A DNA stretch of 6,173 nt from a virus (taxonomy: Duplodnaviria; Heunggongvirae; Uroviricota; Caudoviricetes). The notes below the pieces were generated by a model. The model was not told the DNA's origin. It did not search any database and was given only the letters and a program-made list of their open reading frames with translations. Below are positions 2,404 through 2,643 of this stretch, in pieces. Each line of letters begins with the position of its first letter. Position 1 is the first letter of the stretch. The stretch is from IMG/VR virus record IMGVR_UViG_2671180809_000008; one strand, given 5' to 3'. The position numbers were made by a program, and so were the translations under genes.

Positions 2404-2643
2404 GTGCTGATTGGCTATGTAAGGGTATCAACAAATGACCAGAATACAGACCTGCAACGAAACGCTCTTGTTTGTGCAGGATATGAACAAATATTTGAAG
2501 ATAAATTAAGCGGAACAAGGACAGGCCGACCTGGATTAAAACGTGCTTTAAAGCGCCTTCAAAAAGGTGACGCACTGGTTGTCTGAAAACTGGACTGACT
2601 GGGGCACTGTATGCGGCATCTTGTCGTGCTGGTGGTGGAAGCC
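2404..2643 (+). pseudogene. pin: Pin/Gin/Hin-family serine DNA invertase, inactivated by two in-frame TGA codons and a 3' truncation
   Basis: GTG at 2404 with GGGAG 7 nt upstream. Translation MLIGYVRVSTNDQNTDLQRNALVCAGYEQIFEDKLSGTRTGRPGLKRALKRLQKGDALVV matches the invertase N-terminus. The frame then reads TGA-AAA-CTG-GAC-TGA where homologues have W-K-L-D-R, so each stop is one transition away from a sense codon. Invertase homology ends near 2640. Confidence 0.8.
2628..2635 (+). other. Chi octamer (GCTGGTGG) at the pin / tfa-fragment junction
   Basis: Exact 8-mer, the only copy on either strand in the window, located where invertase homology ends and tfa homology begins. Confidence 0.5.

Follow-up and report, generated by a model that had tools for sequence, protein, structure and literature searches.

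A truncated Din-family invertase pseudogene beside a tail-fibre cassette, shared with hundreds of Escherichia coli genomes

The tail-fibre cassette, the invertase stub and their surroundings

The window (the whole 6,173-nt stretch of IMG/VR record IMGVR_UViG_2671180809_000008 analyzed here) opens with two pairs of tail-fibre genes arranged as mirror images. On the plus strand, a 104-codon ORF that is the 3' remnant of a tail-fibre variable part in the expressed orientation (7 to 321) is followed by a tail-fibre assembly (tfa) gene of 175 amino acids (323 to 850; Pfam Caudo_TAP, E=7.9e-37). Facing them on the minus strand are an alternative, inverted tfa gene of 177 amino acids (879 to 1412; Caudo_TAP, E=4.8e-34) and an alternative fibre C-terminal cassette that has no start codon of its own (1415 to 2341; Pfam gp37_C). 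In two related loci (L106 and L112), the counterpart of the 104-codon remnant is the C-terminus of a 918- or 361-amino-acid fibre, and the minus-strand cassette is 98.8% identical to the expressed fibre of E. coli NCTC86. That cassette contains an amber codon at 1565 to 1567, where position 1567 is T on the coding strand and the NCTC86 base is C (CAG to TAG). The amber had been noted from the sequence alone; it is real, and it is lineage specific, as NCTC86 reads CAG at that position. Cassettes at this locus differ strongly between strains, with tfa genes only about 74% identical. A 26-bp invertase crossover site, TTCTCGTAAACCGAGGTTTTAGATAA, lies at 2324 to 2349 (plus strand); it matches the boundary site of the Mu G segment at 23 of 26 bases and is identical to the 3' site of prophage Phi4 in E. 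coli EC958.

Downstream of the crossover site is an invertase pseudogene (2404 to 2635, plus strand), comprising codons 1 to 77 of about 190, the 5' 40% of a Gin/Pin-type serine invertase gene. Translation from the GTG at 2404 gives 60 sense codons, VLIGYVRVSTNDQNTDLQRNALVCAGYEQIFEDKLSGTRTGRPGLKRALKRLQKGDALVV, before a TGA at 2584 to 2586; this is followed by K-L-D, another TGA at 2596 to 2598, 15 further codons, LGHCMRHLVVLVVEA, and a TAG at 2644 to 2646. The stops thus fall at codons 61, 65, and 81, where intact relatives run to 184 to 199 amino acids. Codon 61 is a tryptophan codon, TGG, in all intact relatives, and codon 65, that of a catalytic arginine, is CGA in most pin-type relatives. 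For homology searches the two TGA codons were read as W and R, giving an 80-residue query, which aligned with residues 1 to 79 of Mu Gin (PDB 4m6f; E=1.9e-41) and matched Pfam Resolvase (PF00239; E=9e-22) over profile positions 2 to 86 of 145 only. Identity to Gin is 57/60 over the first 60 residues, the differences being C27Y, D41G, and T57A, so the near-canonical N-terminus of the sequence-only reading holds, as do its two TGA codons.

The YVRVST motif with the nucleophilic serine (Gin S9) is retained in the N-terminus of the stub, which speaks for homology and descent only. The active-site arginines are not intact: TGA occupies codon 65, and at codon 68 CGC has become CAC (His). Gin R65 and R68 correspond to the active-site residues R68 and R71 of γδ resolvase. 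The neighboring codon is also changed, from AGT to TGT (S69C). Homology to invertases stops at 2635 to 2639, 51 to 55 nt past the first TGA, in agreement with the approximately 55 nt noted earlier, and 37 to 41 nt past the second. A tblastn search with three intact invertases found no trace of Gin residues 80 to 193 elsewhere in the window. In Gin, the E helix spans residues 101 to 137 and the C-terminal helix-turn-helix DNA-binding domain residues 138 to 198 (PMC3575834); the stub, in which homology ends at residue 77 and which gave no Pfam helix-turn-helix match, lacks both. Because Trp61 and Arg65 are TGA codons, Arg68 is replaced by His, and the residues after 77 are deleted, the enzyme cannot be made. 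We conclude that 2404 to 2643 is confirmed as an inactivated and truncated invertase gene of the Din family (Gin/Cin/Pin/Hin).

An in-frame fusion joins the stub to the 3' end of a tfa gene (2636 to 2730, plus strand), of which about the last 30 codons remain, in parallel with a second such fragment at 4806 to 4903. Where the closest tfa relatives (L063 and L113) read ...TTG CTG GAA GCC TGG AAG AAG TAT CGG..., the window reads ...GTG CTG GTG GTG GAA GCC TAG AAA AAG TAT CGG... at the junction. The join is a CTGG/TGG microhomology that directly follows the octamer GCTGGTGG (2628 to 2635) and keeps the reading frame, and the TAG at 2644 to 2646 is a tfa tryptophan codon, TGG in close relatives, altered by a G-to-A change. 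The octamer immediately 5' of the junction is a Chi sequence; as it belongs to the normal pin coding sequence, K-12 pinE included, this adjacency may be a coincidence. Most point changes on the plus strand are G:C to A:T (2586, 2596, the CGC-to-CAC change, 2645, 2649, and the fibre amber at 1567), the AGT-to-TGT change of S69C being an exception; such a bias would fit the usual spectrum of unconstrained DNA. Fragments of tfa 3' ends lie on both sides of a methyltransferase gene, at 2636 to 2730 and 4505 to 4903 in the window and at 6348 to 6431 and 7304 to 7480 in the NCTC86 locus (L001), which suggests that tfa 3' ends recombined repeatedly as cargo genes came in.

Identity to E. coli ends at 2745 to 2756, where the left half of a hairpin is followed by a single N and a contig carrying ipaH begins. 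An ORF for an IpaH-type leucine-rich repeat (LRR) protein lies at 2643 to 3464 (minus strand; Pfam LRR_TTSS; PDB matches IpaH3, IpaH4.5, and IpaH7.8, with E values down to 9e-71). Its homology to ipaH stops exactly at the N at 2756, where the conserved C-terminal E3-ligase half should begin, and neither E. coli nor the otherwise identical contigs contain positions 2757 to 3739. A scaffold join at a multicopy ipaH repeat would seem to explain this better than a true truncation. A contig scan for the tfa/ipaH junction, with N as a wildcard, gave no match, and a pattern scan with the 5' part of ipaH found only Shigella flexneri SFBU1023 and "E. coli" ECMA0423, neither with an invertase stub nearby. 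In SFBU1023 (L114:1875-3203), as in L113 and L115, the LRR region is split by a 1,329-nt insert flanked by a 9-nt duplication (window 2852 to 2860), which looks like an IS element; the region is uninterrupted in the window.

The ipaH insert sits within a hairpin, CCGCAGCACGT-CTTAAGCAAGA-ACGTGCTGCGG (2745 to 2755 and 3737 to 3779), and is flanked by CCGCAGCACGT and CCGTAGCACGT; the same hairpin in E. coli joins the tfa fragment directly to the methyltransferase gene. Between ipaH and that gene, which encodes a class I SAM-dependent methyltransferase (3780 to 4448, minus strand), lies a full-length match to the Rfam family CssrB, "Chromosome-encoded Shigella sRNA B" (3592 to 3771, plus strand; 230 bits against a gathering score of 76), ending in the hairpin at 3737 to 3771; the match suggests that the DNA came from Shigella or EIEC. 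Further along, Rfam matches to C4 antisense RNA (5923 to 6010, minus strand; 75.9 bits) and isrK (6034 to 6108, minus strand; 72.2 bits) adjoin a Rha-family regulator gene (5315 to 5887, minus strand), in what looks like a phage immunity or antirepressor module. A 52-N gap (4644 to 4695) interrupts a tfa fragment between near-duplicate flanks of about 75 nt (4564 to 4643 and 4696 to 4775); since these flanks correspond to overlapping contig ends, the window is a draft scaffold.

Ancestry and distribution of the dead allele

The stub is a mosaic. Positions 2404 to 2594 are 96.9% identical to Mu gin and to the invertases of P2-like prophages, whereas 2595 to 2635 is pin-like, 2599 to 2635 being nearly identical to pin genes; against pin-type genes, the 5' 180 nt of the stub are only about 70% identical (127/180). 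An IMG/VR scan with the pin-like stretch gave 97 matches, and codons were compared in 99 copies among 104 loci. About 71 of the 99 copies read TGG AAA/AAG CTG GAC CGA, with CTG GGG CGC AGT next, and 25 have CGG in place of CGA; two read GTTGTCTGGAAACTGGACCGA, which is the window sequence except at the two stop positions. The sequence-only reading derived each TGA from a single transition. For TGG to TGA this is necessarily the case, and the predominance of CGA among pin-type copies supports CGA to TGA well; the homologues it had named do not carry CGA at codon 65, which is CGC in Mu gin and CGG in e14 pinE. No intact gin/pin hybrid was found in the viral-contig set, where the best intact copy matched 178/237 nt, so the immediate intact ancestor is unsampled there.

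The dead allele is widespread. A 461-nt query comprising the crossover site, the stub, and the tfa fragment matched 531 complete E. coli genomes at a coverage of at least 80%, with about 99% identity in the best matches, and the 240-nt stub by itself matched about 537 at 97 to 99% identity. The same two TGA codons, the same TAG, and the same junction are present in aligned NCTC86, a commensal, and in the ST131 ExPEC strain EC958; the only differences of these two strains from the window are a synonymous GAC/GAT and codon 67, which is GGG, GGT, or GTT. An identical 237-nt sequence occurs in three IMG/VR contigs and several NCBI chromosomes. When a query restored to TGG and CGA was searched, no less-decayed allele was found in complete E. 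coli genomes; the best match was NCTC86 (98.9%), whose 4 mismatches in 352 nt comprise the two known SNPs plus the two bases that had been restored. The E. coli remnant adjoins the trp operon, beside an ompW fragment. The allele is already known: in PGAP annotation, the E. coli copies appear as "recombinase family protein, incomplete, missing C-terminus," with an incomplete tfa after them, hundreds of RefSeq genomes list the allele as a pseudogene, and its truncation and inversion in trans were described in 2014.

Inversion, the probable loss of a crossover site and rival readings

Both NCTC86 and EC958 have an inverted partner of the crossover site about 3 kb upstream. The fibre cassettes of NCTC86 (L001:3057-3832 and 5279-6054) form a 776-nt, 99%-identical inverted repeat; with such a repeat surrounding the segment, the opposite orientation of the NCTC86 cassette could be due to RecA recombination and not to an invertase. 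In EC958, inverted repetition is limited to 36 bp, which include the 26-bp sites. As EC958 lacks a long inverted repeat, a site-specific flip of its segment was constructed in silico and searched. The orientation queries spanned the methyltransferase flank; P2-like prophages with intact invertases had matched 91% of an earlier NCTC86-based query. The natural EC958 orientation was found in 238 ST131-type genomes at a coverage of at least 80%, all with the same pseudogene, and the flip between the two 26-bp sites in 142 genomes, with 100% coverage and 99.9% identity among the matches listed. Even isolates with similar names differ: strains 4/1-1 and 4/4 have one orientation and strain 4/0 the opposite one. 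The window's own cassette in its own orientation gave no records at a coverage of at least 80% in complete E. coli genomes.

The locus is that of prophage Phi4 of EC958, with the crossover site at c1487865..1487890 (L002:6025-6050) (Forde et al. 2014, PLoS One 9:e104400; PMC4134206). Its invertase, EC958_1582, was described as truncated and lacking the helix-turn-helix domain, the Phi4 segment appeared in both orientations in PacBio contigs and reads, and the inversion was ascribed to an enzyme acting in trans, probably the Phi1 invertase, which has nearly identical sites (PMC4134206). We find this gene intact in EC958 (WP_000905061.1; L007:4543-5142) beside the near-identical site TTCTCGTAAACCGAGGTTTTAAATAA, and the P2-like Phi1 enzyme is our candidate for the trans-acting invertase in ST131. 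A precedent is PinQ of prophage Qin, which inverts the P segment of e14 in trans (PMC12529663). Because Din-family invertases work in trans, a pseudogenized invertase is not equivalent to a frozen switch; the claim that loss of the enzyme locks the switch is contradicted by the two orientations with the same pseudogene (238 versus 142 genomes) and by the PacBio evidence.

The genomes closest to the window tell of another kind of loss. Three IMG/VR contigs are 100% identical to window positions 1 to 2755, and a fourth locus (L105) is 99.96% identical; L105 and L107 to L111, all NCBI chromosomes of about 4.8 Mb, have an exact copy of the 240-nt stub. In L022, L105, and L107 to L111, an IS3-family element (ORFs of 100 and 272 amino acids, or a fused ORF of 385) lies directly upstream of window position 1, and beyond it are phage lysis genes, not a fibre N-terminus. 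Within about 5 to 6 kb in these seven loci there is no left crossover site, and the right site stands alone; the left site is present in NCTC86, EC958, L106, and L112. Two IMG/VR contigs end 27 to 55 nt from window position 1, as expected at a repeat. In the IS-bearing genomes seen, the cassette is always in one orientation; among relatives with the same cassettes and both sites, L106 and L112 are oriented like the window and the NCTC86 group is flipped. With the IS boundary at window position 1, the evidence for loss of the left site comes from these proxy genomes, which are 99.96 to 100% identical over 1 to 2755 and do not carry the ipaH insert. The window's own genome would, by this evidence, carry the IS element and lack the left site, and replacement of the upstream part by the element would explain why only the last 104 codons of the plus-strand fibre remain. 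The cassette in the window's lineage is therefore probably frozen, as the sequence-only reading had it, through the lost crossover site and not through the dead invertase to which that reading had attributed it.

The enhancers of Gin, Cin, and Hin reportedly lie inside the 5' end of the invertase gene (Kahmann 1985; Johnson and Simon 1985; Huber 1985). A putative Fis-dependent recombinational enhancer can be placed at 2425 to 2511 (plus strand) in the stub, where the sequence differs from Mu gin by one base. Fis-like G-N13-C motifs at 2449 and 2497, 48 bp apart, are conserved in Mu; a scan for Fis sites gave several G-N13-C pairs, all of which are candidates. The Hin enhancer is 65 bp long, has a Fis site at each end, and is separated by about 100 bp from the closest hix site (PMC3798978); the candidate enhancer is likewise about 100 bp from the crossover site, a placement made by analogy with the Hin system. 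Given its near identity to gin and these motifs, the stub may still provide a cis-acting enhancer in those E. coli hosts where flipping continues.

We consider it very probable that the window holds a dead 5' stub of a Din-family invertase gene whose lesions arose once and were then inherited or spread, in a lineage whose cassette was frozen by IS-linked loss of a site. The stub bounds, on the right, an invertible cassette for tail-fibre host range that belongs to a lambdoid prophage remnant adjoining the trp operon. In an intact system, the invertase binds the two inverted 26-bp sites, with Fis on an enhancer in the 5' end of its own gene, and a flip of the 2- to 3-kb segment swaps the expressed fibre C-terminus and tfa gene. 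The part of the gene beyond residue 77, which held the remainder of the catalytic core as well as the E helix and DNA-binding domain, was presumably lost when an illegitimate join linked the stub to a tfa 3' end at the CTGG/TGG microhomology, and the lesions, having arisen once, would then have passed down or moved with the prophage remnant through E. coli and Shigella. Where an E. coli host has both sites, the segment would still be flipped by the intact invertase of another prophage. In the window's lineage, an IS3-family element has probably replaced everything upstream of position 1, the left site included, so that the cassette would be frozen and decaying, the CAG-to-TAG amber in the silent fibre being a sign of decay.

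Several other accounts of the stops can be weighed against this. A genome undergoing reductive evolution might have knocked out its own invertase here and thereby locked the switch; the Shigella hallmarks (the IpaH-type LRR ORF, the CssrB sRNA, and the flanking IS elements) and the lineage-specific fibre amber speak for it. We regard this as improbable, because about 537 E. coli genomes in which no genome reduction is under way have exactly the same two TGA codons and truncation, and genomes with the dead allele show both orientations; the lesions are inherited, and their attribution to the window's own decay is contradicted. Sequencing or assembly errors in a draft genome would suit a scaffold that has one N at 2756 and a gap of 52 N at 4644 to 4695, and have next to no likelihood as a source of the stops: IMG/VR contigs and hundreds of genomes finished independently have the same bases, which rules errors out. 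Just as negligible is recoding of the TGA codons, as selenocysteine or by tryptophan read-through, into a functional protein. Nothing in its support was found, and it is ruled out by the third stop, TAG at 2644, and by the yield of full read-through, merely 77 invertase residues with no E helix or DNA-binding domain, in which Arg65 and Arg68 would be wrong.

A different proposal concerns why the stub persists. It may have been kept for use in cis, its 5' 190 nt carrying the Fis enhancer beside the crossover site and so enabling foreign invertases to go on flipping an "orphan" fibre switch, possibly with a host function such as blocking phage receptors. The 96.9% identity of 2404 to 2594 to Mu gin, with one base of difference over the predicted enhancer, would fit, as would the continued flipping of the ST131 segment and the finding that trans inversion of a cryptic-prophage segment gives K-12 phage defence (PMC12529663). 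Against it, the stub is no better conserved than the flanking remnant (98 to 99%), enhancers can act from a distance (PMC3798978), and in the window's lineage the second site is lost, so nothing can flip. We judge selection of this kind unlikely. Its fuller form is slightly more doubtful: that the stub persists in hundreds of E. coli lineages as a cis-acting Fis enhancer and crossover site, making the cassette an orphan switch for any resident foreign invertase, possibly selected (for example, through blocked phage adsorption), and that the lone site of the window could recombine with sites of other prophages and drive chromosomal rearrangements.

In practice, the locus marks a prophage remnant that adjoins trp and is widely distributed. 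It is of little importance alone but corrects an attractive and wrong inference, that of a switch frozen by its dead invertase. Lesions that relatives share need dating by comparison among them before reductive evolution of one genome is held responsible, and what looks like a truncation can be a draft-assembly join at an IS element or ipaH repeat.

Comparison with known invertase systems

The closest known case is EC958_1582 in Phi4 of ST131, which is the same locus and the same allele (98.6 to 99.3% identity), with identical TGA codons, tfa junction, and 26-bp site. EC958 differs in having kept the full fibre gene and the left site, in having a segment that flips, and in lacking the ipaH insert; its fibre/tfa cassettes also differ from those of the window (about 74% identity). 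In the window's lineage, the IS element stands where the upstream part would be, and the silent fibre contains an amber.

A fragment of an invertase gene is also found in E. coli K-12, where pinH lies in the cryptic prophage CPS-53 beside tail-fibre and tfa remnants; this is a different locus. With Mu gin, the stub shares the GTG start and 96.9% identity over the first 191 nt, the crossover site agrees at 23 of 26 bases, and the gene order of the G segment (fibre, tfa, tfa', fibre', site, invertase) is that of the window. Mu Gin is intact at 193 amino acids, whereas the stub has two nonsense codons and R68H and has lost residues 78 to 193; the 3' 40 nt of the stub are pin-like rather than gin-like, and its context is a lambdoid prophage, not Mu. 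The close resemblance to e14 pinE and other pin-type genes is confined to this 3' part, 2599 to 2635 being nearly identical, and most pin copies read GAC CGA at codons 64 and 65. Enzymes of the pin family act in trans on other prophages, as PinQ does on e14 (PMC12529663).
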